In this document: piece by piece, positions 31,711 to 61,738 of the stretch
Layout of the letters: each line of letters opens with the position of its first letter
How positions within the stretch are numbered: the stretch's first letter is position 1
From: Candidatus Omnitrophota bacterium
Lineage (GTDB): Bacteria; Omnitrophota; Gorgyraeia; Tantalellales; Tantalellaceae
Assembly: GCA_049643885.1 (NCBI GenBank)
Contig: JBARQV010000031.1
Location: forward strand, 20,949 to 84,948
Length of the DNA: 64,000 nt
Reading direction: 5' to 3'
Made by a program: the position numbers and the translations under genes
The notes under the pieces: model-generated
Told to the model about the DNA's origin: nothing
The model's input: only the letters and a program-made list of their open reading frames with translations
Databases searched by the model: none

Positions 31711-31752
31711 AGGCAACGGGGGAATTGACCGTTTCTGCGAAAGAAGGGTTGA

Positions 31753-45458: not shown

Positions 45459-45952
45459 GGAAACTCGCACTAAACACACCCCCGGACCTTTCCGTAACCT
45501 TGACAAGCGCAACATCTGACTGAAGAAATTCCTGATTTTTATTGTCTGTCTGTTTCTACCAGGAACGTCCGATTTTCCTCGGCGTTTGTTAAATGTCAAT
45601 AACGGCGAATATATGCCTTCCGTCCCGACAAAAATTCTTAACGCTTTTCGGGACATTTTGAACTGACATGGCAAAACTCGCCCCTCGTTACAGGAATACT
45701 CGGGGCTCGGACAGTTGCCCTGCCTGCACATGTCTAATAGCCACGATAACTTCAGCTTAAAATGCCCGTAAAAGCTAAATTTTTGTAATGGTCCGTCAGG
45801 CATATATTCACCGTCACGGCTATTTATCTCTCTCTGGCGCGGGTTCGGGGAATTATATTCGGCAAAAACAATAAAATCATGGGAAAGATTTTATTGTTTT
45901 GCAGAGCTAATCGCCGTGCCACTCTGACCCTTCCTTCAATTTTTGTAAGGGT

Positions 45953-46029
45953 GGGTGGCGCGACAGTGTCCGAGCACAGCACAAATGAAATGCGGATGCG
46001 CGCAGGACACTGAGCGACAGGACCCGCCC
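45953..46029. repeat. R element copy 1: ~80 nt GC-rich imperfect hairpin repeat
   Basis: GGGTGGCGCGACAGTGTCCGAGCAC...GCGCAGGACACTGAGCGACAGGACCCGCCC; about 85% identical to 61128-61206; lies 20 nt past the giant-gene stop. Confidence 0.7.
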
Positions 46030-46050
46030 TTACGATGGTCGATGGACGAA

Positions 46051-49000
46051 TTACGCTGCTATGAGTAGGCGCCTGAGCGTGGCGTAGGATTTGATAAGCC
46101 TGCTCTTGTCGTATCGCTTGGCGTTGGGCAGGAGTTTGAACACGAGAGTCTTTGCGTCTTCCTTATTAATGGACTCTATGTTCAACTCATCAAGGTTGAG
46201 TGTTTTGTTGCGTATCGTGAGCCTGTTCTTGATACCCGTTTCACCGAGGACGGATTCGCAGTAATCTGCCAGTGTTATCACTACCACCTCAGCGATCGGA
46301 AAATAAGCGTCAGGATGGAATTCTTTATGGTCTATGTACGAAGAATGCACCTGTGATTCGATGTTTCTTAAGTCTTTCCTCGACTCCGTTGACGCAAATA
46401 CAAACACTTCTGTATTTTTATCCGCGATGTGTTCAGCAAGCTCAGTAGGCATGTTTTTGGAGTCGGCCGGAACTATCACGAGATTGTTCAGTATAGCCGC
46501 GTTGGCTTCGTCCTCTTTAAGCTCCCGCAACGCTTCCATGAGGCGTCCCAGAGGATCTTCGTTTGAACCTGCGGCGACTTTCGTGTCAAACGCAAGGACG
46601 ATCTTTTTGTTGAATGTCAGCGAAAGCGCTGCCTCCCTGAGACACTTGGCGAGTTTCTCGGGGATCGTAAGGTCACGCAGGGTTTCATCCGACGTGCTTT
46701 CATCCGGAGGCAGATATCCACCGCCGAAGACATACCATTTATCACCTTTGAAATAGAGCATGTTAGCTCTTGCTAATTCTAATGCTTCTTTGAAATCTAT
46801 GATTCTTAAAACTCCTTTGGGGTCACCAGTAATATCTATAACCTCAAGAGTAGATGCTAACCCTAAATCGCGAATAGAAATAATTTTTTCTACAGCCCTT
46901 TCCCCTCTGATCACGTCTTCGTCCGAATCAAGACCAAGATCTCTAAATTTATCAATGGCCTCCTGAGGTTTCGCTATTTTAATTTTCACTGACAATGAAT
47001 CCGGGGAAAAGCTCGCGGACATAACGTTATCGTCGTTCATGGTCTCCATTTTCTTCTCTCCAAGTCCTTCGTGTTCCGTCAATGCCCTGCATGTATTAGT
47101 GGACAGGTCCCAGAATTTTACATACCCTTCCTTGTCTGCTGAAATGAACTGGTTATCGCCGTATCTTGTTATTGAAGAGACCTTGGAATCATGTCCTTTG
47201 AATAACGAAACCTCTTTAGCATCGAGGTCCCAAACTCTTATTGTCCCGTCTTTGTGGCCAGTTACAATTTTCTTGTCGGTCAGGACCGCCAGAGAAGAAA
47301 CCGATTTGAGCGTTTCGCCCGTAAGGGCCCTGCCAATAAACTTTGTATTTCTATATATCCCCACGGTACCCATGTCCTGGTGGTCATCGTTTTTTCGGCT
47401 GGTGGCTACCAGGTAACTGACCTCTCTTCTGGTTTTGCTGCCACTCTCGCGCCTCATGACGAAGTTCCCATCCGGCAATAATGCCTCTAAAGTGAGAAAA
47501 ACATTACTCCTGGATAATGCAGGAGGTGGATATGCCAAGATGCGTACCTCTCCGGATGCCGTATCTAAAATACCGATATTTCTTTCCTTTTGTATCAACT
47601 GATTAAAACCGATCTTTTCTTCGGAAAGCGGTGTAATAGAACGTATTTTTTCACTTCTATCTTTTGTGGTGGATAAATAGGTTTTAATTGTTTTCGCGGT
47701 AAAATTCATTATCTCGATCTTTGCTCTGGCATAGCTTGTGATAATATTCCCTGAAGGTGACACTTCGAGCGATTTCACTTCTCCGGGACCCTTCATAAGT
47801 ATGTAAACCTTGTTCTTGGTGATATTCCATAATCTTATTGCCCCGTCCCTATGCCCCGTTACGATCCTTTTGTCGCGAGTCTCCAGGGTATCGAGTATTG
47901 CAGTTTTTGTGATAGGACTTGCATACCCGCTGAAAGTGACTTCTATTTCCGTTTCTGTGTTTTTTGTGAATAACATTTGCGCGCTATTGTCCTCCACGGG
48001 AGGGGTCCAACGTTCTTTTGTCTCGAATTTTGAAAGAAGGTCATCCGTATAAAGAAGCCATTCACCATCACTTCTCTGGTTTACCACCGGCCCCGTTATC
48101 TTAGATTCTGCGTCAGGGTCAAGTTTAAAAGGAATGGATTTTGATTCTTGTTTAACCGGCTCCGGTTTGTCGGGTCCGGCAGAGGGTATGTCCGCCGCGC
48201 CGCGCAATGCTGCCTCGGTAGCCGTCATAATGCGGTATATGCCGTTTTCAGCTATTCTTGAGTCCCCCGCAATAATGGTTGCTTCTGAAAGTTCGTTACC
48301 GGACCACCTGAGTTTAAGGCCGGGAGACACGCGGCAGATAATATTCACCTTAAATACCGGTTCGCGCATGCTTTCCGGCCAGAGTATTTCTGAAATAGTG
48401 GATATAATATAATCTTCTGAATCCTGATCTCTTGTGAAGATAACGTCGCCTACCTGGAGAAAATCTAATCTTTCTCTAAAGAGGATTTTGTACACGCATT
48501 CGGCATTTTTGCGGATAAACTTGGAGAGTTGCACCATATCCTGGGGAATGCCTACCACAGCGGTCATGTCACCGGTAGCGATGAAACGTTTTAGATCCGT
48601 AAAGGCCTGGCTCCTTGTTTCATCAAACTGTTCTCTATCCATGATACGGTAGACGCGGCCGGATCTTAATTGATCTTCTGGGATAGAAGATTCCTTTTCA
48701 GTTCCTGGAATCGGTACGAATTCTCTGGGTCCCCGCGCGAAGAGAACTTTATAACCCAGTTTCCCGTCTTCCAGGAGTTTTGTTACAAGGAAGACATATT
48801 CCAATAGATTAGTATTAATGAAATAAATAATGTCACCCTCTTTAAGGTCGTCTGTTTTATCTATTGATGCCGCGGGGTCGACAATACACTCAGCGTTTGC
48901 TTTGATCAGCCGGTTGGCGTCAAAATTTTCGATCGGCATATCAGGCATGTTCGCGATATCGCCGGTAGCGAGAACGCGCAGGAACAGCCGGTAATCACCC

Positions 49001-52000
49001 GTTGAAGTTATCTCCCAGCGTTTTATTCTGCCCTTATTATCAAGGGTTACAACATCTCCGTCAGGCGTCAAATCCACATATTTATGAATGAGAGCGTTTT
49101 CTTCTTTTATTGTCGTGATAAGCTTTCCGTTCAGATCCCAGAGCCTTGCACAGCTATCGCCGTCGGTGGTGCAGATAATGGTATTATTTAATACCCCCGC
49201 CGAATAACAACCTCCTATAGTGATGAATTCACCCTCTAGTGCGCCTTCTATCGGTTCTCCGTCAGGGGTCCACAAAAAAGCATGAGCTTCGAATTTATCT
49301 TCATCAGCGCGAAGCCTCCCTAGAATATTTCCGTTTGGAAGAATTATGGGGGCTTCAATAAATTCGCGCCAATTGTAGCCAAACCAGTTCTCGATCTTTA
49401 AAGTTGCAATAGGGTCACCCTTGGAGGTCCAGATCCTTACTCTGTTATCACTATCAAAGGTAAGGACATTGCCGTTAGGGAGGTTTGCCATGCCTTTTGC
49501 TCCCGCCATTACTAGTTCGATTTCCATAGGTGATAATGAGACTGAAAGATTGGTTGCGTATTTATTGCTACTGTTCCACGCTCGTCCTGATGCAAATATC
49601 CACCCGATTGAAGTGGATATCACATATTTCCATACAGCATCTTTGGAAGAAATTCCCCCTTCTAATCTTGGTGATGTTTGCTCGCCGTCTTCGCTGAAAA
49701 CCGTTTGTTTTCCGTCTTTATCGTAAGTGATATATCTTCCGTCATCAAGACGCGCCGCACCGTAATAGGCCATCTCGGTATTAAGTTTTCCCGGACTCAA
49801 GTCTAATCTTAGTTTACCGTATTGGGTCCATACTCTCGCGTGTTCGTCACTATCGGATGTGAGGATCTCGCCATCAGGAAAGACTGTCGCGCCGTAGGCT
49901 CCCACTATAACTTTATCGACTTTTAAAGCGTCTAAGAGATTGCCGCCCTGGTCCCAGAGCCTTGCACTGTCGTTGTCGATGGTAAGGATATTGCCGTCAG
50001 GGAGGACTTCTATGCCCCGTTCTGCTACTGTGATGTTTCCGGACCACAATATGGCCCACCAGCTTTGCTTTTCCACCCTTTCGGTAGAGAACGCGTCTTT
50101 TATAATAACCCCGTTCTTATCCCATAGCCTGACCTTGCCTTCACTGTCCCGGGTGAGTATGTTACCGCTTGGGAGGATCTCCAGAAACGTAATTTCTCCC
50201 GTATCCTCGAATTTTCCCTTTTTCCCCGGGCCTATTTGGCCTTTCCTTGTGTATAGAGTCGGCAAAGTTCTAATATCCAAAGTTGTCGTATCCATAACAG
50301 GCTTCGGAACCACGCAGGTAAATTTGCCGGCCGGTGTATAGAAGACGATCCTGTTTTCACTGTCGCGAATTATCAAATTGCCGTTGGGGTGGACCTTAAA
50401 TGGTATGTCTCCAACGAGCATCCTGCCTGAAAATTTAAAATCAAAATCCACCACTTTTTGAGCCGTAGAAAGCGGCCCAGTCAGTTTAGGCGTTTCTTCC
50501 GACGCGGAAACTGGAGGTTCGGGTTTTTTGAATTTCAGGACGGAAATATGTCCTATCTCTGCCGCGTTGGCAACGTAGACAGTGTCATCTTTATCTATGG
50601 CCAGGCCTCGCGGTTGTTTGAATTTTCCTTGCAACTGATCTATGATCCCGTTGTCGCCAAAAGCGGGGTTCCGGCTTTTTCCATCCGGATTCAGGACTAT
50701 CATTGCTTCGGCATTACTTATGATCACGTAGATATTCCCTTTACTATCTATGCCTATGCCTTGTTTTACCACTTCCAACAGCTTTCTTTCCCCCAAGTCT
50801 TCAAAATCAAGGGGTATTGTCCCGTCATTTCCAAAAGCCGTATTAAGGCTTCCATCCGGCTTCAGAACGGATATTGTGCCGTTGCCGTCGTTGAGCACAA
50901 AGATATTGCCTTTATTATCTAATGCTATGCCGACAGGTTTACTGAATTTACCGGTTTCCTTTGGTATTGTTCCTGATGACGCGAACCCTGTTTTCAGGGT
51001 CAGATCGGGGTTAAGAACGGTCAGCGATTCGTTCCTCGCATCGACAACCAGGAAATTTCCTTCCTTGTCCCTGACCATGTCAACGGGCGTACTAAGGCCC
51101 AATGGTTCATAATCTACCAGTCCTTTATTGCCGAAATAGCGGTTTAGCTTCTTCCCATCAGGATTTAGGACGGAAAAGTTTCTTCTCCGGTTAACGCCAA
51201 TGATATTACCGGCATCATCTATAACTGCGCATATCAGCCGTTCGATCTTGCCCGATATGATCCCTTTCTTACCGAAATTTCGGTTTAGAGCTTTCTCGTC
51301 CGAATTAACAACCGACATCCAATCGCCTTCGTTACTTACGAAAATATTTCCTTGTTTGTCGACAGCTACATTGAATGGCATTACAAAGTTGCCCGTTTCC
51401 CGCGGGATCACGCTTACTTCCAGCTCGCACTTGACTGTAGTCGGAGATCCGGGTTCTGCCGGCGATTTGACGGGAGTTTTTTCTTCTCCGGGGCGTGGTT
51501 CGATCAAGGCCTCTTCGCCGTATGAATTTTTCAAAGAGTCGCCGGTTTCGCCCGGAACGCCGGGGGCTTCTGCGACGGATACGGCGGACTTTTCCACCGG
51601 GACCTCCACCCAGAACCAGGTCTTGCCTTCTTCCACATCGAAGTTTGTTTCTATGCCGAGTGAATCAAGCTCAAGTTTAGCTTTAAGGAATCCCTGGAGA
51701 GCGCGGGGTGCTGTTTTTTCGATCTCTTCCGCGTTCTCGTATTTTGTCGCGAAAATATGCCGCTGGAGGAATTTGCTGAACCCGGAATTGTAACCGATAG
51801 CTACACATAAACCCCCGTCACTCTGGCCCGCAGCTAATCCCACGAGTTTTCCGGCCTCTTGTGCTTCCTTAAGACGGTCCGGAAGGCTTTCAGGGAGAGA
51901 TTCCCAGTAATCTTTTATCACCATCCTGTCCTTTTCGTAAAGAAAAGACTCAAAATTGGCTCTTTTTGTGATCCTTACAGTTTCTTTTATCCAGCCATCC

Positions 52001-55000
52001 AGCGCTTTCTTTTTCTCGTCCGGGGCTTTGGCGACTATTTCCTTTCGTCCCGCGTTTGCCTCTTTATCTTTGCTGCGGAAATCGGGACTGGTCAATACGA
52101 AATTATCGGTAAGCTGTGAGGGATCAATGGCTTTCCCTGCGCCTATCGCGACTTCTTTTCTGAAACCGAATATCTCTTCCAGGTCGCCTATCGTGATCGC
52201 TTCGGCAGGTCTTTCCTTAAAGCGCTCGGCAATACCCGTTATTGCGGCCCTGTCCCGCTCGCCCAGTTCTTCGACTTCTTGCGCTTCTTCCCGCTTTTGA
52301 TGTTCAAAAACGATCTTTCCTTTTTCAAATTTCGCCGTTATCGTGTCGCCCCTTCGTATAGCGGCTATATTTTGTGTCATGTAAGTTGAAAGCGGGTTCT
52401 CAAAATGCCTTTTTACTGCGTCTGCCATGGGACGCGCGCCGTATTCAGCTATGTATCCTTTTTCGGCAAGCATCCTGTTGATGCTGGCTTTTTCCTCATC
52501 ATTCCGGCCGATAACGAGGTTTATTCCCTGCTTATCCCTGAAGCGTTCCATCGTTTCCGACAAGAAGAGCTGGACTATCTTTGTGAGCGAATCCAGGGGA
52601 AGCGGGTTAAATACCAGCGTGCCATCGAGGCGGTTCAGAAATTCCGGTCTGAAGAACCTTTTCACGGCATTGCTGACCGAAACGTTCATTTTTTCTATGA
52701 ACGCTTTTATCTTTTCCGGGTCACCGCTTTTGACGGCTTCTTCCATTTCTGGATATAACGATACGGGATGAGGCCTGCCGCCCTCTATCACGATGTCCTT
52801 CATTCCCAGGTTCGTGGTAAGTATGATGATCGATTCATTGAACTTCACGGTGTCGCCCCGGTTTGAGGTAAGCCTTCCGTCTTCCATCACCTGGAGAAGT
52901 ATATTCATCACATCAGCGGCCGCTTTGTCTATTTCGTCGAAAACGATAACCGTCTTCGGATATTTTTTCATATGTTCAAAAAGGTAACCCTCGCCTTCAT
53001 CATATCCCACGAATCCCGGGGGAGCGCCTATAAGCCGTGAAAGGTCTTCCCTGGTCTTGTATTCGCTCATGTCGATCCGGAGCATTTTCATGCCCAGTGT
53101 ATCGGCAAGCGTTTGAGCGGTCTGTGTCTTGCCCACCCCGGTAGGCCCGGCGAAAACAAATGCCCCAAGAGGCGCTTTCGGTGACTTCAGCCCCGCCTTG
53201 GCGACCCTTACTACACTGCTTACGGTTGAAAGCGAGTCATCCTGGCCGACTACGCGGTTCTTGAGGTTGTCCTCAAGAGCGAGGAAGTTCGCCCTTTCGT
53301 CCCGCTTTAATGAATCCGTATCGATCTCTACCTGGCCTCTCCTTGCTTCAAGCTCGCTTATAAATTCAAGCGCCTCATCCTGCCCGATGGCGGGTGACGA
53401 TTTTTCTCCCATTCTTTCCTTGGAAGCGTTGACGCGCCGGACAAGCGTCTTTATTTCATCGATCCCTAAAAGGTCTTCTTCTGAAACTTCTTCGTTCGCG
53501 GCGGCGTCCTGGAGTTCTTCTTTGAGCTGTTCCAGGCTGTCCCTGAGTTCCACCGCGACGCGCGATTCTTTCTGCCGCCTTTCGAGGGCGAGCCCGCTGA
53601 ACCACCTGTTAAGCACCTCTACCGCAGAATATGACGAGAAATACTGTTCCCACAGCCGGACCGCCACGCGCATGGCTTCAAAACTTATCTGGATACCGGG
53701 CTTGCCGTTACTTGTCTTTTTCTCTATATAATCCTTTATAAAGAGATGCAGGTTTTCCATTACGGCGCTTGCTTCCTGCGGGAGCATGTCGACCAGCGTA
53801 AAATGCTGGTCAAAGGAATCGTCTTCGGTGATCGACTGGCGCGACGATGTCATGACAAAAGAGACCGTCTTGAGTCCCCTGAACATCCTCAGGAAATACC
53901 CGAGCATGAACGGGTTTACCCTTACCTTTTCAAGCTCGTCCTTGACGTCGTCAAAATCGATCACAATGATGGTCTTGAGGCCTTTTTTCTCGCCGTCTTT
54001 TTCGATAAGCTCGGCCAGTTCTCTCATCTTTATCTCGAAATAACCCACCATGGAGAAGTAACTTTTAAGGGACTCCAGTTTCAAGCGAAGGATACGGGTA
54101 TCAGTAAATCCTGAGATCTCCCCGCGCGACGCGCGCGCGACAAAACTGTCGACCACCATCCTCTTGGCCAGGATAGAATCGCTCAGGACCAAAGGATAAT
54201 TCCTTCTTTTCTGGTTAAGGACGGATGAAAGGCGGCCGATAGTCTCGAACGGCGGGTAAAGGTCTTCTAAAACGCCTTCGGCCGCGTCAAGGCTCAGGTT
54301 CTCAAACGCCCCGTTCAGTTCCTTGCGGAGCTTCTCCTGTTCCGCTATCGACTGCTCTTGCATTTCGTCCTGCATTTTCCTGGCGCTTTCTTCATTGCCG
54401 CTTTTTCTGGTCGCCAGTATCGTCCTTTTCCTTACCAGGAGTTCAAGCTCCGTCCGTTCTTTTATCATCCTTTCCGATATTGCCTGCTTCTGCGAATCGC
54501 TGCTTGTCCTGCGCAGCTGGTTGTCCATTATCTTCTGGTTGGCCTGCAGCTCCTGTATCCTTACTTCGATCTTTTTGAGTTCAGTGTCGATATTTTCGGG
54601 ACTTAAGTCCATTTCCGGCAGGCTTTCGGGGTCGGCGATGTCTATTTCGTATTTTTTACGCATATCTTCAAGCAGTGTCTGCCGGATCTCCATTGCCCTC
54701 GAGTCTTCTTTATCTGGGACCGAGAATGATTTAGCCATGACCTGAATTGATATATTTTTGATGTCGAGCAGTTCATATAATTTCTCGGCAGGCGTTTCTT
54801 TAGTCCCTTCTTTCTTTAAACGGTCTATGGCCTTCCTGTGCCGTGCCTGTTCTGTTTCCTGTTTTTCTTTTTTGGTCTTAAATATGGCTTTTCCGTCTGA
54901 AACGTCAGCTTCTATTGTTTCTCCTTTATTTATAGAGTCGGCAAGGATAAGGTCAGCCAGCGGGGCCAGCACTATCCTTTTTAAAGACCTTTCCAGGGGC

Positions 55001-58000
55001 CTGGCGCCGTTCGTGACATCGTATCCTTCCTCCAGGACCTTTTCGCGAAGAGTTTGACTCAGGCGAAGTTCCCCGTAACCTTCCGCGGAAAGGAGTTTAT
55101 TGACGTTCTTGAGCTTTATATCCAGTATTTTTTCCAGGTCTTCCTTTGAAAGAGGATTAAAATTGATTATGTTCGGCAGGCCTATGCGGCCGATCAATTC
55201 CGGCCGCAAGCCGGCTTTTACGGCTGCAATGACTTCATCTCTTACTTTCCGCCTTAGGGCTTCCAGTTCTTCCAGCGCCTCTTCTCCTCCCCGGTCCTTG
55301 AGCATGGCGATCTTGACATACTTTTCGTTGAGCGCTCTTGTTCTCTCCGGGTCGGCCGCATACCCTTCGCTGAAACCTATATTCGAAGTCATTATTATGA
55401 TAGTGTTCCTGAAGTTGGCCATTCTTCCCTTCCCGTCGCGAAGCTCGCCGTTATTAAGGACCTGCAGGAGCAGGTCGAGCGTCTTGGGATGGGCTTTTTC
55501 CACCTCATCCAGAAGGACGACGCTGTATGGCCTTTTCAGGACGTGATTGGTAAGTTGCCCGCCTTCTTCGTACCCGACGTATCCCGGGGGCGAGCCGATC
55601 AGTTTATATGAATCGCTCTGGTTCATGTATTCACTCATGTCGATGCGCACCATGGCGTCTTCCGAGCCGAACATGTGCCGGGCAAGGGAACGCGCGAATT
55701 CCGTTTTTCCCACACCGGTAGGCCCGACAAGGAGGAATGCCCCGATAGGCAGGTTCCCGCTCGCGCCGATCACTCTTCTGCGCGAGAATGCCTGGTAGCT
55801 GTCATTGATGGCTTTGTCCTGGCCGATAAGCATGCCCTGGAGTTTAGGGACATAATCCTTGAGAAGCTCGTCTTCGGAAGCAAGTATCTCGTAGAGCGGG
55901 ACGCCGCTGTCTTCGGATATCTGTTTAGCTATTGTCTCTATAGTTATTTCCCATTTTTTGCTTTTGGTGATGTCTTCTATGAATTGCCGGTTCTCTTCCA
56001 GCTCCTTCTCGACCGCTTCCTGCTCGCTCAAAAGCCTGTCCAATGAAAGTTCCAGGAATTTTTGCTGCTCAGCGTCTTTCTCGTCCGCGCCGCACTTTAT
56101 CAGTTCTTTTGATGTCCTCAGTATCCTTTCCAGTATATCCGCTCTTTTTGCTTCAAGCCTTGATGCGGTCGTGAACGCGCGCGTGATTATCCTGTCGATG
56201 ACTTCCTGAAGTTTGTTTACCGAAAGCCCCTGTGGATAATGCTTCTGGCTCAGTCTGAGGGCTTCATCGAGGATCTTTCTTGGAACCTGGACTTTTACGC
56301 CTTCGGGGATGATGTCTTTATACGCGGAATTTATCCTGCGGGTGAAACTCTTCGCGATCCTCAACAGGTCATATTCCGGGGGCGCCCGCATGTCCAGGAC
56401 AGAAAACTTCGGTTCAAGGCGCTTGTCTTTCGCGAGGACAGTATCATAAAGCTGCGGATTGCCCAGGATGACCACGCTTATATTTTCGTTTTCGATTGCT
56501 TCCTTCAGCTGGAAATACAAGCTGGCCATCATGCCCGATTTCATTTTCTGGACGTCATAAAAATCCTGGAAGTTCAGGACAAGGACTGATCTTTCGTTCT
56601 TGCGCGCGGCCTTTAACGCGCTTGTTAGCTTGGCCAGTTCCATTTCAAGCTGGCCGGGTATAGCGAGATTCTCGGCGAATCGGGCGGTATTTATCTCGAA
56701 AAATTTCGCTTTTCTCAAGTTATCAAGCCCTGTTGAAGTCTCCCCTTTGCGCACTACTATTCCTTCTATCAATCCCTGGCATGCGATAGGGTCGCCTACG
56801 ATCATGACGTTGTTCATCTCCGGGTCCGTGATCTGGTCGTTCAGAAAAGCCGCGTAATTCGCCACGTAATACGTGTCGTCTATCTTTCCGTCTTCAACCA
56901 GTTCATCCAGGTCGTTGGTGTATTGTTTGATGTAATCGGGATTCGCTTGACCCTGGCCTTGAGGCCCGGCAGGAACACTCTCGCCTAATTCGAGCAGGAT
57001 CAATATAGGCGCAGCTATTATCCCCGCTAAGAACATCCATTCAAGAGGCATGATCCCGGCTGTTGTCGCGTTCACTCCCAGGTCAAGGGTCATCCCGAAG
57101 CCATGCTTAAGTGTAAAATAAGCCCCGATGCCGATCCACCATAACATATGATGGTGGTGATGGCCGCTCAGATGCTGTTTTAAGTGCGCCAGTTTTTGCG
57201 CGAGAATGGATCCTGTGGTTTGTTGGGCAGCCCCGTCGGTTCCGTTAGGTTTATCGTCACTTTCGCCGGGCGTGATCTCCTTGCCGGCTTTTTCGTATAT
57301 CCTTTCAAGGGCTCCCCTGCCCCTGTCGCTTCTTAAAACCTTGCCTATCGCGGCCGGGTTATCCTGGACCAGGACTTTTTGCTGGATAGCCTGGATCACC
57401 GCGCCCATTACTTCCTCAAAGTTCTTGTCTTTTTTATCGGACCTTAAATAACGGACAACCGTCTTTATCGTTACTTCCCTTATATCGTGCTTCTCCTCAT
57501 CGCTTACCTCGGTTTCCAGGTCATCTTCGCCCTCTTCTTCAAGGGCGTCGGCAAGTTCGTCCAGTTCTTCGCCCATCTCTTCGACGGCTTTCTCGACCTC
57601 TTCGACGATCCTGTCGGCATCTTCTTCGTTTTCTTCCTTTTCTTTTTCCCGTCTCAATGCTTCCAGATAGTACATCCTGTCGCATATGCTTAATATTGAT
57701 GGGACCAGAACGGCAAGAAGAATGACCACTATCGGCAGGCCGCCTATCATTGACGCGCCGGCCGTGTGGCAACCGGTCATGAATGAGCCGCCTATAACGG
57801 CCAGGATAAGCCCAAGAAGGGTCTTTCCGGGGCCGGATTTCTTTTCTTTAGCGGGTATTTTCTGGTCTATAAAGATCCTTAGGGCTTTGCCCAATAATCC
57901 CTTACTCATCCCCTTTCCGGGAAAATGGTCCGGAAAGAACTCCTGCTGGGCAAGGATAGCGTGGTAATGGCTAAGAGTCGGGCAGATAAGTTCATGCAGA

Positions 58001-58842
58001 AGATACTCGTCGATCAGATGCGGGCGGCACATATTTTCAAGTTCCGCGATAAAGTCAGTGGCAAGGAAGATCTCCTTATCTCCGGGGTAATGACGTCCCA
58101 GGAAGAAATCATCTTTTCCTTCTACGATAGATTTTAACCCATAGATCGTGTATCCACCGCTTTCTATTTTTTCTATTAATTCTTCAAGCGCCCTTCTGTG
58201 TTCAGGAGCCAGGCTGAATAGGCTGACGCCTTGAGTGAATTTTTCAAGCAGGCTTACCAGTCGTTCTTTATACTCGTCGGTTATGTCTTCTTTCGGGGCT
58301 TGTTCGAACTTTTTAGCGGACAATTCGCCCTGATGGATAAACCCGTCGCCCGTTTTCCCTTCTTCTGCTGTTTTTTCATCTATTTCGGGCTTGCTTTCGG
58401 GTTCTGCGGGTTCAGCCGCGGCCGGCTTTTCGCCTTTCTTTCTTATCGCGGTATCAAAATCGTTTTCAGGGTCTATCACGACTTCGAATTCAATAAAATC
58501 TTTTTTGCCCGGGATGATCCATTTTCCGGTTTCGTCCTGCCTCTTTTCATTGCTGTCAAAGAATAAATGCACTTTTTCACCGTTCACTTCAGGAAAAAGG
58601 TGTTCAGTGATCTCTTCAAAGGGTTTATGGAGGCCGCGCAAGTAAACCTGCACGGCAACCTGGACCGAAAAAAGATTTGCGGGTTCCCAAAAGTTGCTGG
58701 CAGCACTAAGATACATATTTGCCGCGCCTCTCTGGAATATGTCAGGATTCGCCCATGTAACGTTGTTAACAGTGAACAGGCACACTATCACCACGGCTAT
58801 TATCTTTATCCATGCCCTATTCCTGTTTTTCGCGTTTTCCAT
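46051..58842 (-). CDS. giant membrane-anchored multidomain protein (~4263 aa): 2x ClpB-like AAA+ modules (degenerate NBD1 + intact NBD2), NHL beta-propeller, multiple WD40-like repeats, unknown C-terminal domain
   Basis: Start ATG 58842 with SD AAGGTGA (the longest ORF runs to 59061, but that extension passes through the leader hairpins and repeats). Signal-anchor AWIKIIAVVIVCLFTV plus two TM hairpins. Degenerate NBD1 NNVMIVGDPIACQGL. Walker A GPTGVGKT at nt ~55702-55725 and ~53130-53153; Walker B VVLLDEVEKAHP and VIVFDEIDKAA; GARPLER and GARPMAD sensor-2. NHL repeats at nt ~50450-51450. WD40-like repeats (e.g. HRDGAIRLWN, HKDGTIRVWD) at nt ~47100-50400. Confidence 0.85.
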   Translation of the reverse strand: MENAKNRNRAWIKIIAVVIVCLFTVNNVTWANPDIFQRGAANMYLSAASNFWEPANLFSVQVAVQVYLRGLHKPFEEITEHLFPEVNGEKVHLFFDSNEKRQDETGKWIIPGKKDFIEFEVVIDPENDFDTAIRKKGEKPAAAEPAEPESKPEIDEKTAEEGKTGDGFIHQGELSAKKFEQAPKEDITDEYKERLVSLLEKFTQGVSLFSLAPEHRRALEELIEKIESGGYTIYGLKSIVEGKDDFFLGRHYPGDKEIFLATDFIAELENMCRPHLIDEYLLHELICPTLSHYHAILAQQEFFPDHFPGKGMSKGLLGKALRIFIDQKIPAKEKKSGPGKTLLGLILAVIGGSFMTGCHTAGASMIGGLPIVVILLAVLVPSILSICDRMYYLEALRREKEKEENEEDADRIVEEVEKAVEEMGEELDELADALEEEGEDDLETEVSDEEKHDIREVTIKTVVRYLRSDKKDKNFEEVMGAVIQAIQQKVLVQDNPAAIGKVLRSDRGRGALERIYEKAGKEITPGESDDKPNGTDGAAQQTTGSILAQKLAHLKQHLSGHHHHHMLWWIGIGAYFTLKHGFGMTLDLGVNATTAGIMPLEWMFLAGIIAAPILILLELGESVPAGPQGQGQANPDYIKQYTNDLDELVEDGKIDDTYYVANYAAFLNDQITDPEMNNVMIVGDPIACQGLIEGIVVRKGETSTGLDNLRKAKFFEINTARFAENLAIPGQLEMELAKLTSALKAARKNERSVLVLNFQDFYDVQKMKSGMMASLYFQLKEAIENENISVVILGNPQLYDTVLAKDKRLEPKFSVLDMRAPPEYDLLRIAKSFTRRINSAYKDIIPEGVKVQVPRKILDEALRLSQKHYPQGLSVNKLQEVIDRIITRAFTTASRLEAKRADILERILRTSKELIKCGADEKDAEQQKFLELSLDRLLSEQEAVEKELEENRQFIEDITKSKKWEITIETIAKQISEDSGVPLYEILASEDELLKDYVPKLQGMLIGQDKAINDSYQAFSRRRVIGASGNLPIGAFLLVGPTGVGKTEFARSLARHMFGSEDAMVRIDMSEYMNQSDSYKLIGSPPGYVGYEEGGQLTNHVLKRPYSVVLLDEVEKAHPKTLDLLLQVLNNGELRDGKGRMANFRNTIIIMTSNIGFSEGYAADPERTRALNEKYVKIAMLKDRGGEEALEELEALRRKVRDEVIAAVKAGLRPELIGRIGLPNIINFNPLSKEDLEKILDIKLKNVNKLLSAEGYGELRLSQTLREKVLEEGYDVTNGARPLERSLKRIVLAPLADLILADSINKGETIEADVSDGKAIFKTKKEKQETEQARHRKAIDRLKKEGTKETPAEKLYELLDIKNISIQVMAKSFSVPDKEDSRAMEIRQTLLEDMRKKYEIDIADPESLPEMDLSPENIDTELKKIEVRIQELQANQKIMDNQLRRTSSDSQKQAISERMIKERTELELLVRKRTILATRKSGNEESARKMQDEMQEQSIAEQEKLRKELNGAFENLSLDAAEGVLEDLYPPFETIGRLSSVLNQKRRNYPLVLSDSILAKRMVVDSFVARASRGEISGFTDTRILRLKLESLKSYFSMVGYFEIKMRELAELIEKDGEKKGLKTIIVIDFDDVKDELEKVRVNPFMLGYFLRMFRGLKTVSFVMTSSRQSITEDDSFDQHFTLVDMLPQEASAVMENLHLFIKDYIEKKTSNGKPGIQISFEAMRVAVRLWEQYFSSYSAVEVLNRWFSGLALERRQKESRVAVELRDSLEQLKEELQDAAANEEVSEEDLLGIDEIKTLVRRVNASKERMGEKSSPAIGQDEALEFISELEARRGQVEIDTDSLKRDERANFLALEDNLKNRVVGQDDSLSTVSSVVRVAKAGLKSPKAPLGAFVFAGPTGVGKTQTAQTLADTLGMKMLRIDMSEYKTREDLSRLIGAPPGFVGYDEGEGYLFEHMKKYPKTVIVFDEIDKAAADVMNILLQVMEDGRLTSNRGDTVKFNESIIILTTNLGMKDIVIEGGRPHPVSLYPEMEEAVKSGDPEKIKAFIEKMNVSVSNAVKRFFRPEFLNRLDGTLVFNPLPLDSLTKIVQLFLSETMERFRDKQGINLVIGRNDEEKASINRMLAEKGYIAEYGARPMADAVKRHFENPLSTYMTQNIAAIRRGDTITAKFEKGKIVFEHQKREEAQEVEELGERDRAAITGIAERFKERPAEAITIGDLEEIFGFRKEVAIGAGKAIDPSQLTDNFVLTSPDFRSKDKEANAGRKEIVAKAPDEKKKALDGWIKETVRITKRANFESFLYEKDRMVIKDYWESLPESLPDRLKEAQEAGKLVGLAAGQSDGGLCVAIGYNSGFSKFLQRHIFATKYENAEEIEKTAPRALQGFLKAKLELDSLGIETNFDVEEGKTWFWVEVPVEKSAVSVAEAPGVPGETGDSLKNSYGEEALIEPRPGEEKTPVKSPAEPGSPTTVKCELEVSVIPRETGNFVMPFNVAVDKQGNIFVSNEGDWMSVVNSDEKALNRNFGKKGIISGKIERLICAVIDDAGNIIGVNRRRNFSVLNPDGKKLNRYFGNKGLVDYEPLGLSTPVDMVRDKEGNFLVVDARNESLTVLNPDLTLKTGFASSGTIPKETGKFSKPVGIALDNKGNIFVLNDGNGTISVLKPDGSLNTAFGNDGTIPLDFEDLGERKLLEVVKQGIGIDSKGNIYVIISNAEAMIVLNPDGKSRNPAFGDNGIIDQLQGKFKQPRGLAIDKDDTVYVANAAEIGHISVLKFKKPEPPVSASEETPKLTGPLSTAQKVVDFDFKFSGRMLVGDIPFKVHPNGNLIIRDSENRIVFYTPAGKFTCVVPKPVMDTTTLDIRTLPTLYTRKGQIGPGKKGKFEDTGEITFLEILPSGNILTRDSEGKVRLWDKNGVIIKDAFSTERVEKQSWWAILWSGNITVAERGIEVLPDGNILTIDNDSARLWDQGGNLLDALKVDKVIVGAYGATVFPDGEILTSDSDEHARVWTQYGKLRLDLSPGKLNTEMAYYGAARLDDGRYITYDKDGKQTVFSEDGEQTSPRLEGGISSKDAVWKYVISTSIGWIFASGRAWNSSNKYATNLSVSLSPMEIELVMAGAKGMANLPNGNVLTFDSDNRVRIWTSKGDPIATLKIENWFGYNWREFIEAPIILPNGNILGRLRADEDKFEAHAFLWTPDGEPIEGALEGEFITIGGCYSAGVLNNTIICTTDGDSCARLWDLNGKLITTIKEENALIHKYVDLTPDGDVVTLDNKGRIKRWEITSTGDYRLFLRVLATGDIANMPDMPIENFDANRLIKANAECIVDPAASIDKTDDLKEGDIIYFINTNLLEYVFLVTKLLEDGKLGYKVLFARGPREFVPIPGTEKESSIPEDQLRSGRVYRIMDREQFDETRSQAFTDLKRFIATGDMTAVVGIPQDMVQLSKFIRKNAECVYKILFRERLDFLQVGDVIFTRDQDSEDYIISTISEILWPESMREPVFKVNIICRVSPGLKLRWSGNELSEATIIAGDSRIAENGIYRIMTATEAALRGAADIPSAGPDKPEPVKQESKSIPFKLDPDAESKITGPVVNQRSDGEWLLYTDDLLSKFETKERWTPPVEDNSAQMLFTKNTETEIEVTFSGYASPITKTAILDTLETRDKRIVTGHRDGAIRLWNITKNKVYILMKGPGEVKSLEVSPSGNIITSYARAKIEIMNFTAKTIKTYLSTTKDRSEKIRSITPLSEEKIGFNQLIQKERNIGILDTASGEVRILAYPPPALSRSNVFLTLEALLPDGNFVMRRESGSKTRREVSYLVATSRKNDDHQDMGTVGIYRNTKFIGRALTGETLKSVSSLAVLTDKKIVTGHKDGTIRVWDLDAKEVSLFKGHDSKVSSITRYGDNQFISADKEGYVKFWDLSTNTCRALTEHEGLGEKKMETMNDDNVMSASFSPDSLSVKIKIAKPQEAIDKFRDLGLDSDEDVIRGERAVEKIISIRDLGLASTLEVIDITGDPKGVLRIIDFKEALELARANMLYFKGDKWYVFGGGYLPPDESTSDETLRDLTIPEKLAKCLREAALSLTFNKKIVLAFDTKVAAGSNEDPLGRLMEALRELKEDEANAAILNNLVIVPADSKNMPTELAEHIADKNTEVFVFASTESRKDLRNIESQVHSSYIDHKEFHPDAYFPIAEVVVITLADYCESVLGETGIKNRLTIRNKTLNLDELNIESINKEDAKTLVFKLLPNAKRYDKSRLIKSYATLRRLLIAA

Positions 58843-58857
58843 ATTGTTGTCACCTTT

Positions 58858-58883
58858 TAGCTCGATAAATCGAGCAACTACAT
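58858..58883. promoter_or_regulatory. palindromic hairpin motif copy 1 (GCTCGA-TAAA-TCGAGCAACTAC) in the giant-gene leader
   Basis: Part of a 29 nt direct repeat ttttagctcgataaatcgagcaactacat that occurs twice, 47 nt apart, directly upstream of the RBS. Confidence 0.6.
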
Positions 58884-58902
58884 TTGTTGTATCGGGTCGT
58901 TT

Positions 58903-58930
58903 TTTAGCTCGATAAATCGAGCAACTACAT
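58903..58930. promoter_or_regulatory. palindromic hairpin motif copy 2
   Basis: Identical 29 nt repeat. Confidence 0.6.
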
Positions 58931-58932
58931 CC

Positions 58933-59002
58933 CACGAACGACGAACTACGACCGACTACCGACGATCGACGAACCACGATCGACGAAATACGACCGACGA
59001 TT
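58933..59002. repeat. 10x tandem heptanucleotide repeat (ACGANCG)
   Basis: acgaacg acgaact acgaccg actaccg acgatcg acgaacc acgatcg acgaaat acgaccg acgattc; perfect 7 nt periodicity over 70 nt in the giant-gene leader. Confidence 0.8.
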
Positions 59003-59003
59003 C

Positions 59004-59059
59004 CGGTCTGGGGTGGTATTAACCAGCGCAGGAGGTTAATACCACCTTTATACCAGACC
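59004..59059. other. leader hairpin (imperfect 22 bp inverted repeat) with AGGAGG in the loop
   Basis: ccggtctggggtggtattaacc ... ggttaataccacctttataccagacc. Confidence 0.5.
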
Positions 59060-59063
59060 ATGT

Positions 59064-59136: not shown

Positions 59137-59178
59137 AAAAAAAAGCCAGGCTGACCTTCTTTAGGTAGCCTGGCTTTC
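59137..59178 (-). terminator. intrinsic terminator on the minus strand (A8 - agccaggct...agcctggct)
   Basis: 9 bp GC-rich stem followed by T8 on the minus strand; would terminate a minus-strand transcript starting near 59580. Confidence 0.6.
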
Positions 59179-59499: not shown

Positions 59500-59575
59500 C
59501 GGGATATGGGGGTGTTTCGTACGGGAGGATCCACACCAGGCGGAGGGGCCCGGTAGAAACACCCCCATATCCCGT
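59500..59575. repeat. hairpin B carrying conserved 40 nt core copy B (59518-59556) between 19 bp arms
   Basis: cgggatatgggggtgtttcg [core] gaaacacccccatatcccg; the core reverse-complement matches 31359-31399. Confidence 0.6.
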
Positions 59576-59691: not shown

Positions 59692-61011
59692 GTGAAAATA
59701 CGGGCTGAAATGAGGAAGATCTTTACGAACGTTTTTGTATTCCTGGTAGTTTTTATTCTGATCTCGGAATGCGCCGATCTTTTCTACGTTTATAAGAACA
59801 CCACCGATATGCCCGGAAAATTCGGATGGGAAGACCGGGCTGACTTCAGCGTGTACTGGGAAGCAGGGTTCAATCTATCTCAAAGGGACATGTCCCACCG
59901 GGACAGGTCAGATTACCCGGTTTACGACCTGAACGAGCCCTTTCATCACTTCAGGTACTCCCCTTTCTTCGCGTTCCTCATGATCCCCTTCGGCATGATC
60001 CGTTATTCGCGTGAAGCTTTGTTCTGGTGGTACTTGCTCCTTAATATCCTGTTCCTGGCATCATTTTTTCTATTTTCAAAAGAACTCCGGTTGGATTTTA
60101 AGGCACGAGAGGGCCAAAGATGTATTGTCATGTGGGCTGCTTTTATCGGGACCCTGAGATACTACCTGATGAACATGAGGCAGGGTCAGACGGATGTCAT
60201 AGTGGCTTTTCTTTTCGCGCTTCTTCTCGTATCCTATCTCAGGGATCGGGATCTTGTATCCGGCCTTATCATTGCCTTGATACTCCAGATGAAACCGTCA
60301 TTTTTTCCTGTTTTGATCTATTTTCTATTCATAAGAAAGATCAGGATCGCCGTATACACGGTTATTATATTCGCCTTGCTGCAGCTTTTGCCGGCGTTCC
60401 TGGTCGGTATTAACGAAGCAGTTATGCTTTTCAAGGAGTGGATCGATATGCTGCGGATGTCGGTCCCGTCGCAGGTCCTTAATTTCAAGAACTATTCCGT
60501 GCCTTATGCCGTAACCGTCCAGCTCATGAAGATCAATGTGATAAGGGCTATTATATCTCCGAGGGCGCTTATCTATGCACTGAGCGCGATATCCGCCCTG
60601 GCTGTTTACGCGCTTACCGCCCGGTTCAGGCGAAGGGTCCTTGAACGTGACGAGAAACGATTCAGGTATCTGGAAATATCTATACTTATAATGACCTCCC
60701 TTCTCTTTTCTTCTTTGACCTGGGAAGCACATTTTACGGCTCTTCTAGTTCCTATCGGGACAGCTGTCTATTTCGCGATGAATAGCAGTAAACAAAAAGT
60801 AATTTACGCCGCCTTGGGCGCGTACCTGGCGCTAAGCCTTTTTGGGACGGATCTTACGACGTGGATCCCCGTAATTGGAGGCGTGAGATTCATTAATATT
60901 TCAATAGCGACGTTTTTCCTGGCATTCGCGGTGGTGTTGGGGTACAGGGACAACATTCTGTCCACCGTCGACAGTCCACAGTCCACGGCGTCAGGTAGAG
61001 GTAGAGATTGA
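59692..61011 (+). CDS. polytopic membrane protein, GT-C-type glycosyltransferase-like (DUF2029/GT87-like)
   Basis: About 12 TM helices; FHHFRYSPFFAFLMIPF motif region typical of DUF2029; the only plus-strand gene. Confidence 0.5.
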   Translation: MKIRAEMRKIFTNVFVFLVVFILISECADLFYVYKNTTDMPGKFGWEDRADFSVYWEAGFNLSQRDMSHRDRSDYPVYDLNEPFHHFRYSPFFAFLMIPFGMIRYSREALFWWYLLLNILFLASFFLFSKELRLDFKAREGQRCIVMWAAFIGTLRYYLMNMRQGQTDVIVAFLFALLLVSYLRDRDLVSGLIIALILQMKPSFFPVLIYFLFIRKIRIAVYTVIIFALLQLLPAFLVGINEAVMLFKEWIDMLRMSVPSQVLNFKNYSVPYAVTVQLMKINVIRAIISPRALIYALSAISALAVYALTARFRRRVLERDEKRFRYLEISILIMTSLLFSSLTWEAHFTALLVPIGTAVYFAMNSSKQKVIYAALGAYLALSLFGTDLTTWIPVIGGVRFINISIATFFLAFAVVLGYRDNILSTVDSPQSTASGRGRD

Positions 61012-61022
61012 TGACGCGGGGA
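60993..61022. repeat. direct repeat copy 1 (includes the last codons and stop of the 59692..61011 gene)
   Basis: aggtagaggtagagattgatgacgcgggga; about 27/30 identical to 61235-61266. Confidence 0.65.
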
Positions 61023-61234
61023 AATTTTCCTTCTGTAAAAACAATAAAATCAAAGGGACCCATACTGGATCCTCGATACTCAAGCGCGTAGCGTAAAGAG
61101 CATAGCGCAGAGCGGTCTGCGGTGGGCGGGCGGCGCTACAGTGTCCGAGCACCGCACAAGCCAGTGGCGCGGAGGCGCGCAGGACACTGAGCGACAGGAC
61201 CCGCCCACTAGATGCTCCACGAACCACACCAGAT
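61023..61234. mobile_element. MITE-like ~212 bp insert flanked by ~30 bp direct repeats and carrying R element copy 2
   Basis: Bracketed by direct repeats 60993-61022 and 61235-61266; contains the structured R2 repeat; no ORF. Confidence 0.3.
61128..61206. repeat. R element copy 2
   Basis: GGGCGGCGCTACAGTGTCCGAGCACCGCACAAGCCAGTGGCGCGGAGGCGCGCAGGACACTGAGCGACAGGACCCGCCC. Confidence 0.7.
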
Positions 61235-61266
61235 AGAGGTATAGGTAGAGATTGATGACGCGGGGA
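61235..61266. repeat. direct repeat copy 2
   Basis: agaggtataggtagagattgatgacgcgggga. Confidence 0.65.
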
Positions 61267-61291
61267 GTTGCCCGATAAATCGGGCAACTAC
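61267..61291. promoter_or_regulatory. palindromic hairpin motif copy 3 (GTTGCCCGA-TAAA-TCGGGCAAC) with a compensatory change
   Basis: Perfect 9 bp palindrome; relative to copies 1 and 2, the T/A pair is replaced by C/G on both arms; overlaps the stop of the 61288..61701 gene. Confidence 0.55.
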
Positions 61292-61701
61292 TTGATGACC
61301 CGGAAGGAATGGAAGCTTCTTCTGCTCTTTCCGACGCCTCGGTAAACTTGCCGCAATGACCAGGTATAGACCTTCCCCGGCAGGAACATTTCCGCGTCCA
61401 GAGAGATCTCATATTTATTGCCTGGAACGCGTTCTTTGAATAACAGTGTGCGTTCGAGCATGTCAAAGCCTTCGTATAACCTGAAGTCGTAATATTTTCT
61501 TCCGAGACGCAAGCCCTCATGCGGGCTCCACTTGAATTCAAGTGCTTCTTTTCCCGAGAGGTTTACTTCTGTTGTGGTAGGCGAGAGCAGTCTGGGCATT
61601 GGGACATAATCGGCCCTGCCACCGTAGCTTGACATGCTTACCTGGGCGTAAGCATAGGTGGCTAGTAATAAGATAGCTGCGGAAAATATCGCCTTTTTCA
61701 T
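61288..61701 (-). CDS. secreted protein, hypothetical
   Basis: Signal peptide MKKAIFSAAILLLATYAYAQ. Confidence 0.45.
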   Translation of the reverse strand: MKKAIFSAAILLLATYAYAQVSMSSYGGRADYVPMPRLLSPTTTEVNLSGKEALEFKWSPHEGLRLGRKYYDFRLYEGFDMLERTLLFKERVPGNKYEISLDAEMFLPGKVYTWSLRQVYRGVGKSRRSFHSFRVIK

Positions 61702-61738
61702 AATATAGATTCCCGCTTTCGCGGGAATGACAACGGGG

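Follow-up and report, generated by a model that had tools for sequence, protein, structure and literature searches.

A 214-bp mosaic of intergenic repeat modules between two copies of a gene's 3' end in Candidatus Omnitrophota

Near the right end of a 64,000-nucleotide stretch of Candidatus Omnitrophota DNA (the window), the last codons of a glycosyltransferase gene recur a short distance downstream, beyond a small non-coding block that separates the gene from a converging neighbor. How did the block come to lie between two copies of a gene's 3' end, and what is it made of? An initial annotation proposed a MITE-like insertion; the structured block and the target duplication of about 30 bp that it described were retained in our analysis, and the MITE-like label was not. 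The most economical reading, judged from the sequence, is that 214 bp were inserted at the 3' end of the gene together with a duplication of about 30 bp of the target. The features of the locus are listed in Table 1.

Table 1. Features at the locus and at the related site near 45.9 kb (window coordinates).
Feature	Position	Strand	Remarks
GT87-family glycosyltransferase gene	59710..61011	+	ORF; 433 aa as called in MAGs
Direct repeat, copy 1	60993..61022	+	AGGTAGAGGTAGAGATTGATGACGCGGGGA
Block between repeats	61023..61236		214 bp; T, unique spacer with small hairpin, R2, 14 unique bases
T module	61032..61084	-	Terminator-like match in consensus scan
Small hairpin	61106..61121		CGCAGAGCGGTCTGCG; in unique T-R2 spacer; from folds
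R2 unit	61120..61222		Imperfect palindrome of ~100 nt; four copies aligned
Direct repeat, copy 2	61237..61266	+	AGGTATAGGTAGAGATTGATGACGCGGGGA; ends exactly at foot of palindrome P
Palindrome P	61267..61291		GTTGCCCGATAAATCGGGCAAC + TAC; itself a small repeat family
Third, partial copy of repeat core	61292..61303	+	TTGATGACCCGG vs TTGATGACGCGG
Converging gene, 137-aa protein	61288..61701	-	Hydrophobic segment at N-terminus
Second T-like + R2 pair	45836..46047		T' core; R2 at 45949-46047

The upstream gene (PF09594) is named 'glycosyltransferase family 87 protein [Candidatus Omnitrophota bacterium]', and an alternative GTG start at 59692 would give a protein of 439 aa. Its C-terminal tail is unconserved across homologues and is encoded by a tandem hexamer tract (AGGTAG AGGTAG). 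The converging gene is the last of a minus-strand gene run (GH3, MR_MLE, hydrolase, epimerase and others), and a Pfam search with its 137-aa product returned no match. No tRNA or tmRNA genes were found.

Alignment of the two repeat copies revealed identity at 29 of 30 positions, with a perfect final 24 nt and a sole mismatch, G at 60998 and T at 61242. The duplication of the gene's 3' end claimed in the initial annotation is thus real, and copy 1 indeed comprises the last five codons (GRGRD) and the TGA (61009-61011), followed by 11 further bases; the second copy starts at 61237 rather than 61235, the spacing is 244 bp from start to start rather than 242, and the insert measures 214 bp rather than 212. 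The perfect 24-mer occurs at two sites in the 64 kb, both here, against 0.00 expected in 100 shuffles, and a local repeat census showed that only this 24/30-mer and a 29-nt pair between P copies stand out. The edges of the repeat are sharp: local alignment of the flanks scored at shuffle level, with no homology past the 30 nt on either side. An older and longer duplication of the gene tail was rejected on the same score, and a faint peptide resemblance (DSPQSTASGRGRD vs DAPRTTPDRGIGRD) was accounted for by the conserved right flank of R2 and dropped.

An assembly artefact, either a collapsed repeat or a chimeric join across R2 copies, could be suspected: identical stretches of up to 60 bases are found between R2 copies, and within R2 the k=31 contigs are interrupted at 61161 and 61177-61180. 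Against this, four bridging contigs from separate assemblies (ENA ERZ23498717 scaffold_70; NCBI GCA_049642145.1, GCA_049645485.1 and GCA_049644745.1) were 100% identical to the window over 60960-61300, agreeing base for base, which argues that the arrangement is no artefact. Independent k=31 Logan contigs covered each half of it; each repeat copy with both its flanks lay within unbroken k=31 contigs, and, at 24 nt, the perfect repeat falls below k in length. The collapse that the initial annotation had named as a possible objection was thereby contradicted, and we regard any assembly explanation as having a negligible probability. No insert-free allele was seen: at least eight contigs carrying the flanking genes have either the filled site or a break inside it. 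Contigs that stop at 61002 and 61091 imply a second allele. The same two-copy layout in related genomes, with no insert-free allele, had been named as another objection; formally it is what we observed, at 100% identity, but all available assemblies represent one near-clonal population (97-100% identity overall), so the universal filled site says little. Outside this population the closest GT87 relative shares 52% protein identity, which makes an orthologous nucleotide comparison impossible.

As the initial annotation had it, the block is non-coding, highly structured and contains R2: it holds no credible ORF, the plus- and minus-strand folds of 61012-61270 gave z = -3.4 and -5.7, respectively, and R2 itself folds strongly. 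An Rfam search returned nothing for the insert, either with the whole window at gathering thresholds or with 60900-61400 at permissive thresholds. The search for further copies that had been proposed yielded no second whole block in ~101 kb of DNA from the same species; only its modules recur, and the spacers at 61085-61122 and 61205-61240 are unique in that DNA. T occurs without R2 at L028:1266-1318, and R2 occurs without T twice in a GT9 gene cluster. By these comparisons, the block is a mosaic of the modules T and R2, which also occur separately, and not one MITE. A second T-like and R2 pair lies 3-4 nt past the stop of a giant minus-strand gene, with its own AT-rich hairpin (45864-45900) beside the T' core. 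Both pairs have T before R2 at similar spacing (85 vs 88 nt), whereas their spacer sequences are unrelated. The 45-kb pair has no long or convincing flanking repeat, and among all the remaining copies (three of R2, two of T) no long flanking direct repeat was found. Shorter flanking repeats were seen, of 11-15 nt at 45778/45938 and of 11-14 nt at L028 1224/1293; the window has many exact 11-12-mer repeats (19 observed vs about 6 in shuffles, most of them not close to a repeat module), and the short flanking repeats were therefore discounted as evidence.

R2 consists of a hairpin core (61122-61208) followed by a conserved right flank, CACTRGATGCT, and folds at -54.5/-57 kcal/mol (z = -4.6/-5.1). 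The ~101 kb contain four intergenic copies with 85-95% identity: those at 61 kb and 45949-46047, and two in the GT9 cluster (L034:8655-8760 and L034:10455-10560), which were found by a six-frame peptide search of over-extended ORF calls (P0031 and cluster); the same search gave no donor for the whole block. Alignment of the four copies revealed 28 consensus pairs, three of them changed on both sides; G-U and double changes preserve the stem, and the arms are conserved while the apex varies more. The copies, found in both orientations, are placed within transcription units or at their ends. Three of the four are in sense to their neighboring genes, but the giant gene has its copy, at 45.9 kb, in antisense, so one role at the transcript level does not suit every copy. 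R2 matched no Rfam family and was absent from IMG/VR. Its 20-mer GGACACTGAGCGACAGGACC had one match in GTDB representative genomes (Arthrobacter) and one in JGI metagenomes (a high-GC contig), with surrounding similarity limited to 25 nt and 42 nt, respectively; both therefore look like chance matches, and the family was not found beyond this population in GTDB representative genomes, JGI metagenomes or IMG/VR. In being an imperfect intergenic palindrome of ~100 nt in several copies with conserved arms, R2 resembles ERIC/IRU elements and REPINs, and it shares one set of features with REP/REPIN sequences: extragenic, multi-copy, a long hairpin of two inverted conserved ends. REPINs have been described as symmetric hairpins with two inverted conserved ends and a spacer between them (PMC3116915). 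R2 may differ from REPINs at the foot, where a GTAG-type sequence is not conserved across its copies (GTGG precedes the stem in the 61-kb and GT9b copies, not in the 45-kb and GT9a copies), and its arms are not themselves small REP palindromes. The window genes that were scanned and the gene tables for the retrieved loci included no RAYT gene, and no consistent short flanking repeat was seen by eye at the R2 copies.

At the core of the T module is a conserved AT-rich sequence (plus strand, AAAAACAATAAAATCAAAGGGACC); the minus-strand reading of T is a short hairpin at 61072-61056 (GGATCCAGTATGGGTCC) and then CTTTGATTTTATTGTTTTT. Three copies were recovered (61032-61084; L028:1266-1318, 90.6-92%; and window 45836-45905), and each is preceded by a gene on the strand on which T reads as a hairpin plus U-tract. 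This arrangement, a short G+C-containing hairpin and then a U-rich tract in the orientation of the preceding gene, resembles that of intrinsic (Rho-independent) terminators; however, the T stems are weak, and the best conserved part is the AT-rich tract, not the stem. The hairpin at 61 kb folds at -12.4 kcal/mol (z = -1.05) and that at L028 is weak (z = +0.58), both energies being at shuffle level, so a terminator role rests on the consensus scan and the orientation count.

Palindrome P, which bounds the second repeat copy, folds at -16.6 kcal/mol (z = -6.35). The CTA in P is the TAG stop of the minus-strand 137-aa gene, and GTAG is conserved in P, which is unrelated to R2. A 12-nt sequence (TTGATGACSCGG) flanks P on both sides. 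The third, partial copy of the repeat core lies directly right of P, within the 3' end of the 137-aa gene. The repeat-core pattern occurs three times in the window, always at this locus (0.00 expected). About 2 kb away lies a polymorphism in P copy number, a 47-nt indel between L005 and the window.

Removing one 244-bp unit leaves a compact junction of the GT87 stop, 11 nt, P and the stop of the converging gene. We infer that the ancestral state was ...GGT AGA GGT AGA GAT TGA TGACGCGGGGA, followed by P and then the stop of the 137-aa gene. The 214-bp block would have been copied in immediately left of P, with the 30 nt of target before P copied twice, whereby GT87 kept its last five codons and stop. 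Templated insertions with flanking duplication arise from replication template switching at palindromes, by quasipalindrome or microhomology-mediated routes, and such a route could be sketched here. DNA synthesis would stall at the foot of the hairpin P; the nascent end would switch to an ectopic T-R2 locus via the short match GACGCGGGGA/GGGGAA, which lies on the left flank of T copies; about 214 nt would be copied there; and synthesis would return to the original template 30 nt upstream, at the microhomology AGGTA, and re-copy those 30 nt. Repair of a staggered break would give the same product by another route. Two observations at the junctions are in line with template switching. Copy 2 ends exactly where the stem of P, a strong hairpin, begins, and comparison of the T flanks at 61 kb and 45 kb revealed homology running into repeat copy 1 (GACGCGGG--GAAATT vs GGCGCGGGTTCGGGGAATT), which is the microhomology that a template-switch model needs; this left-junction match comes from two or three T copies that have diverged, and AGGTA is the sole match at the right junction. 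The locus is like known template-switch insertions in that the inserted modules exist elsewhere in the genome, a short target stretch was re-copied, one junction falls at a hairpin foot and short matches occur at the junctions. It is unlike them in that a donor locus for the 214-bp block was not found in ~101 kb from this species, and in that accounts of such events usually treat them as rare mutations rather than fixed features. Because neither a donor locus nor an empty site was found, direction and mechanism are read from a single product, and the third partial copy at 61292-61303 is unexplained by a single event. Our preferred reading, a fixed one-off copy-in of a T-R2 block at the junction of converging genes with 30 nt of the target re-copied, is accordingly put forward tentatively, at somewhat less than even probability.

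The transposition reading, the idea of the initial annotation with an IS1549/IS1634-like enzyme added here, holds that the block is a non-autonomous element moved in trans by a transposase whose long, variable staggered cuts left a 30-bp target-site duplication. The sharp 30-bp repeat around a non-coding block of repeat families suits this, as does the recurrence of T-then-R2 order and spacing at 45.8-46.0 kb, and insertion of IS1549 and IS1634 is reported to create direct repeats of 8-514 bp, tens of bp included (PMC2266710). However, those elements are 1.5-2 kb long, with inverted ends and a DDE transposase, and nothing of the kind was seen at or near the locus. No transposase or integrase annotation lies within 10 kb on either side of the insert; the sole transposase found in the window, of the IS110 family (22247..23437; the gene scan covered part of the region from about 13 to 42 kb), is 38 kb away, and BLAST searches with the insert's repeat modules had no match in its region. 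Terminal inverted repeats are absent: a search of 60980-61280 with a 6-nt seed returned only the R2 arms and a small palindrome at 61019-61030, and the insert ends do not pair in any register allowed by the 30-nt repeat. The flanking-repeat-free 45-kb pair with its unrelated spacer, and the solitary T and R2 copies with no second full block in ~101 kb, also speak against transposition, which we consider unlikely. Bacterial MITEs such as Correia elements and RUP are likewise small, non-coding, structured intergenic inserts with a direct repeat and possible terminator activity, but target duplications of MITEs measure about 2-10 bp, against 24-30 bp here, and the block has no terminal inverted repeats, no second full copy in ~101 kb and parts that occur independently; the MITE-like label was abandoned on these grounds.

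A stepwise history, in which slippage in the GT87 hexamer tail first gave two 30-nt copies in tandem and T and R2 were inserted between them afterwards, draws on the tandem hexamer tract, which should be slippage-prone, on the polymorphic P copy-number indel nearby and on the behavior of T and R2 as separate modules. It takes more events than a single copy-in, and since neither 30-mer is damaged, the first insertion would need to have struck precisely where the two meet; no bare tandem 30-mer allele was present among the assemblies compared, and we judge this history distinctly improbable. Integrase-mediated insertion into genes typically duplicates the gene's 3' end including the stop codon, as with phage 21/e14 at icd, and the repeats could be read as attL/attR of an element that carried the gene's 3' end and has since been reduced to 214 bp. 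Copy 1, with its five codons and stop, would then reconstitute the 3' end of the target gene, and the lone mismatch near one repeat edge fits. Yet tyrosine and serine recombinases are absent both from the insert (214 bp, no ORF) and from the genes tabulated within 10 kb to its left and right, the block is composed of the host's own intergenic repeat families, and the repeat sequence is absent from IMG/VR, all of which make this origin very unlikely. Diversity-generating retroelements have a repeat pair of ~100-150 bp differing at adenines and a reverse transcriptase nearby; the present repeat is 30 bp, has a single G vs T difference and spans a stop codon and non-coding bases, and the locus gene tables contain no reverse transcriptase. 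Together with CRISPR-like arrays and retrons, this class was ruled out by repeat length, spacing and absent associated genes.

Read on the minus strand, the block would place two elements behind the 137-aa/GH3 gene run, a very stable hairpin and a hairpin-plus-U-tract, and it probably terminates or insulates the transcript of that run, which would otherwise continue antisense into GT87. The insert is a small, ordinary piece of genome tinkering and not a classical miniature transposon; it opens no new mechanism and settles no standing question, unless long-duplication insertions prove systematic. There is a slim chance that R2, T and P belong to an undescribed mobile system of Omnitrophota whose insertions fall beside hairpins and create target duplications of long and variable length; these would be 30 nt around T-R2 and 12 nt around P, and the chemistry, unlike that of MITEs, REPINs or IS elements, would spread ready-made terminator or insulator cassettes between genes. 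Omnitrophota are a phylum known almost only from MAGs; R2, T and P add uncharacterized repeat families for it, and these repeats visibly break up its short-read assemblies. If the copy-in reading is true, the locus would be a clean natural case of a tightly packed genome gaining 3'-end structure with both converging genes undamaged, and such blocks would be built from a small kit of lineage-specific intergenic modules.

Comparison of the two sides of the 214-bp block (61023-61236) at the 3' end of the GT87 gene revealed a 30-nt direct repeat, AGGTAGAGGTAGAGATTGATGACGCGGGGA, whose copies (60993-61022 and 61237-61266) differ at a single position (G60998 versus T61242) and match perfectly over their final 24 nt. 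Copy 1 comprises the five terminal codons (GRGRD) of the ORF (59692/59710..61011), which encodes a GT87-family glycosyltransferase of a Candidatus Omnitrophota MAG population, its TGA (61009-61011) and 11 bases beyond. The duplication of the gene's 3' end described in the initial annotation was thus confirmed, as a 30-nt repeat with one mismatch, but its coordinates were two bases off: the copies start 244 rather than 242 bp apart, with 214 rather than 212 bp between them. A search with the 24-mer, allowing up to three mismatches, found no third site in the 64-kb window, and the chance expectation is zero. When the sequence left of copy 1 was locally aligned to the insert, and when the sequences right of each copy were aligned, scores stayed at shuffle level, indicating that the repeat stops sharply on both sides and is not what is left of a longer duplication that has decayed.

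Five NCBI MAGs, an ENA scaffold and several assemblies from Logan carry the locus. Four contigs bridged the entire arrangement with 100% identity to 60960-61300, and each repeat copy lay with its two flanks inside unbroken k=31 contigs; an assembly artefact is therefore excluded for practical purposes. The k=31 Logan contigs ended within R2, the hairpin module of the block (left-hand contigs at 61161, right-hand ones at 61177-61180), the behaviour expected of a multi-copy hairpin. No insert-free site was present among the assemblies with the locus, all of which belong to one population and are mostly 99.5-100% identical; the closest other GT87 relative shares 52% protein identity, and C-terminal tails are not conserved among homologues. 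The arrangement is a real, fixed insertion with target duplication.

Strain variation was evident around the locus. A patch at 61558-62138, which takes in the 5' half of the converging minus-strand 137-aa gene and extends over the 3' part of GH3, was about 10% divergent (58 mismatches; put at 3% in the population comparison) in two MAGs with otherwise near-identical flanks, and has the look of a recombination tract. Its edge interrupts contigs of other MAGs, one of which ends at 61557, one base short of the patch. In one sample (GCA_049644805.1, Logan SRR28062526; L035, L036, L038), two assemblies end exactly at 61002 and another contig at 61091. Since elsewhere in the population contigs stop where strain-variable patches begin or end, there is probably a co-existing allele that differs across 61003-61090, the remainder of copy 1 plus the terminator-like module T.

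The block is a mosaic of T and R2, not one element. The segments 61085-61119, which carries a small hairpin, and 61223-61236 had no further match in ~101 kb of the species, and the block contains no substantial ORF and no Rfam family. The MITE label given initially could not be upheld: no terminal inverted repeats were present in any register permitted by the repeat, the make-up is mosaic, and a long flanking direct repeat is absent at all other R2 and T copies. When exact local repeats of at least 11 nt were counted in the four non-redundant stretches, only two stood out, the 24-mer and a 29-nt pair of the palindrome P; the 11-12-mers near other R2 and T copies are of a kind frequent in the window. 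The gene tables list no transposase or integrase within 10 kb on each side of the insert. The only transposase gene found in the window is of the IS110 family (PF01548 and PF02371; 22247-23437, minus strand), a region in which BLAST searches with R1, R2, T and P gave no match.

Coordinates of repeat modules and structured elements (L028 and L034, loci of the same species outside the window)
Feature	Position	Strand	Remarks
T	61032-61084	minus	GGATCCAGTATGGGTCC then CTTTGATTTTATTGTTTTT; terminator-like by consensus scan
T, second copy	L028:1266-1318		~10 kb right of the window; 90.6-92% identical; no adjoining R2
T, third copy	45836-45905		more diverged; own AT-rich hairpin
R2	61120-61222		~100-nt imperfect palindrome; fold -54.5/-57 kcal/mol
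R2, second copy	45949-46047		
R2, further copies	L034:8655-8760; L034:10455-10560		between co-directional genes in a GT9/Macro gene cluster; without T
Partial third copy of repeat core	61292-61303		TTGATGACCCGG; inside 3' end of 137-aa gene, just right of P
P, single	61267-61291		
P, tandem pairs	58855-58930; L028:4693-4767	minus-strand sense (58855-58930)	
R1	59499-59575; 31340-31420; L028:1355-1440	plus; minus; plus	
Long intergenic regions	45272-46050; 31230-31760; L028:990-1260		~260-nt hairpin in L028
Inverted repeats in these regions	45356-45416/45467-45527; 45590-45618/45798-45826; 31551-31577/31680-31706		

In its behaviour T resembles an intrinsic-terminator family. On the strand giving a hairpin and U-tract, all three copies lie downstream of a same-strand gene (the 137-aa gene, the giant 4263/4336-aa gene and a gene ending at L028:951). 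The L034 copies of R2 were reached by searching its six-frame translation against a protein collection, which led through an over-extended ORF call (P0031) to that locus. The four R2 copies, at 85-95% identity, have in common a consensus hairpin of 28 pairs, in which G-U changes occur and three pairs are altered on both sides. Searches for R2 and the direct repeat in GTDB representative genomes, JGI metagenomes and IMG/VR gave just two chance 20-mer matches. R2 is like ERIC/IRU elements and REPINs (PMC3116915) in its size and symmetry, in lying between genes and in the way its copies behave. A claim to REPIN family membership would require a RAYT gene. At 45.8-46.0 kb and 61 kb the order T then R2 is kept, with 85 versus 88 nt from T core to R2 but unrelated spacer sequences; the pairing thus looks functional or old, not a recently mobile composite.

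We infer that the block acts as a minus-strand 3'-end structure after the GH3/137-aa gene run, ahead of the point where transcription would proceed antisense into GT87. The minus-strand order would place a very stable hairpin, then a hairpin plus U-tract, beyond the last gene of that run. The uniform orientation of T and its match to the terminator consensus support this function, whereas the T stems at 61 kb and in L028, no more stable than shuffles, and the mixed orientation of R2 (three copies are sense to neighbouring genes; the fourth is antisense to the giant gene) oppose it.

Other structured elements were noted as well. Motif R1 has a 19-bp stem around a conserved core of ~40 nt, GTAC(A)GGGAGGAKCCACACCRGGCGGAGGGGCCC(T)GGTAG; at 31.3 kb the stem sequence is entirely different, with pairing preserved via 12 double changes. 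Each of the three copies is found in sense orientation ~80-135 nt upstream of a gene (GT87; SpoIIAA-like, 30860..31222; DUF362), and Rfam searches returned no family, just sub-threshold miRNA noise; R1 is a candidate new 5'-leader regulatory RNA. The giant gene (46051..59061) encodes AAA+/ClpB-like and WD40/beta-propeller domains, and its leader carries a c-di-GMP-I riboswitch aptamer (59161-59247, minus strand; 53.6 bits against a gathering score of 35), so that the giant protein appears to be c-di-GMP-controlled. Unusually long intergenic regions (about 500-800 bp) are rich in long hairpins. Tandem P pairs (GCYCGATAAATCGRGCAACTACWT) lie directly upstream of the ribosome-binding sites of the giant gene and an LTXXQ-family gene; one MAG (GCA_049645405.1) differs by a 47-nt indel that leaves a single P instead of the pair before the giant gene.

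At the insertion, the P stem (GTTGCCCGATAAATCGGGCAAC) starts at 61267, directly after copy 2 (fold -16.6 kcal/mol, z = -6.35), and its CTA supplies the TAG stop of the 137-aa gene. Removal of one 244-bp unit leaves a compact junction of GT87 stop, 11 nt, P and 137-aa gene stop, the probable ancestral state. At the left junction, the similarity between the T flanks at 61 kb and 45 kb extends into copy 1 (GACGCGGG--GAAATT vs GGCGCGGGTTCGGGGAATT); at the right junction, AGGTA alone is in common. The three occurrences of TTGATGACSCGG in the window are confined to the 61-kb locus, two within the 30-nt repeat and one in the partial core copy; an 11/12 direct repeat with copies 40 nt apart therefore lies around P, and a single event does not account for it.

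Templated copy-in suits these features best. DNA synthesis would have stalled at the foot of P, the nascent end would have annealed to an ectopic T-R2 locus through its similar flank, and ~214 nt would have been copied from it before synthesis went back 30 nt upstream and re-copied the target as far as P. The end product is what we observe, every step being our reconstruction, and staggered-break repair would yield the same product. A less likely route is that a non-autonomous element transposed here and made a long target duplication; IS1549/IS1634, which produce 8-514-bp repeats (PMC2266710), offer a precedent, but the missing inverted ends, the mosaic block and the absence of such repeats around the other copies argue against it. 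Slippage could instead have duplicated the hexamer-rich gene tail, with later insertions exactly at the junction, although this requires more events. The reading as an attL/attR remnant finds no recombinase and no foreign content to support it. Length, spacing and associated genes led us to reject a DGR or CRISPR-like interpretation.

The insert consists of new, lineage-restricted members of known intergenic repeat kinds, and is of modest interest unless hairpin-adjacent long-duplication insertions prove systematic in this genome.
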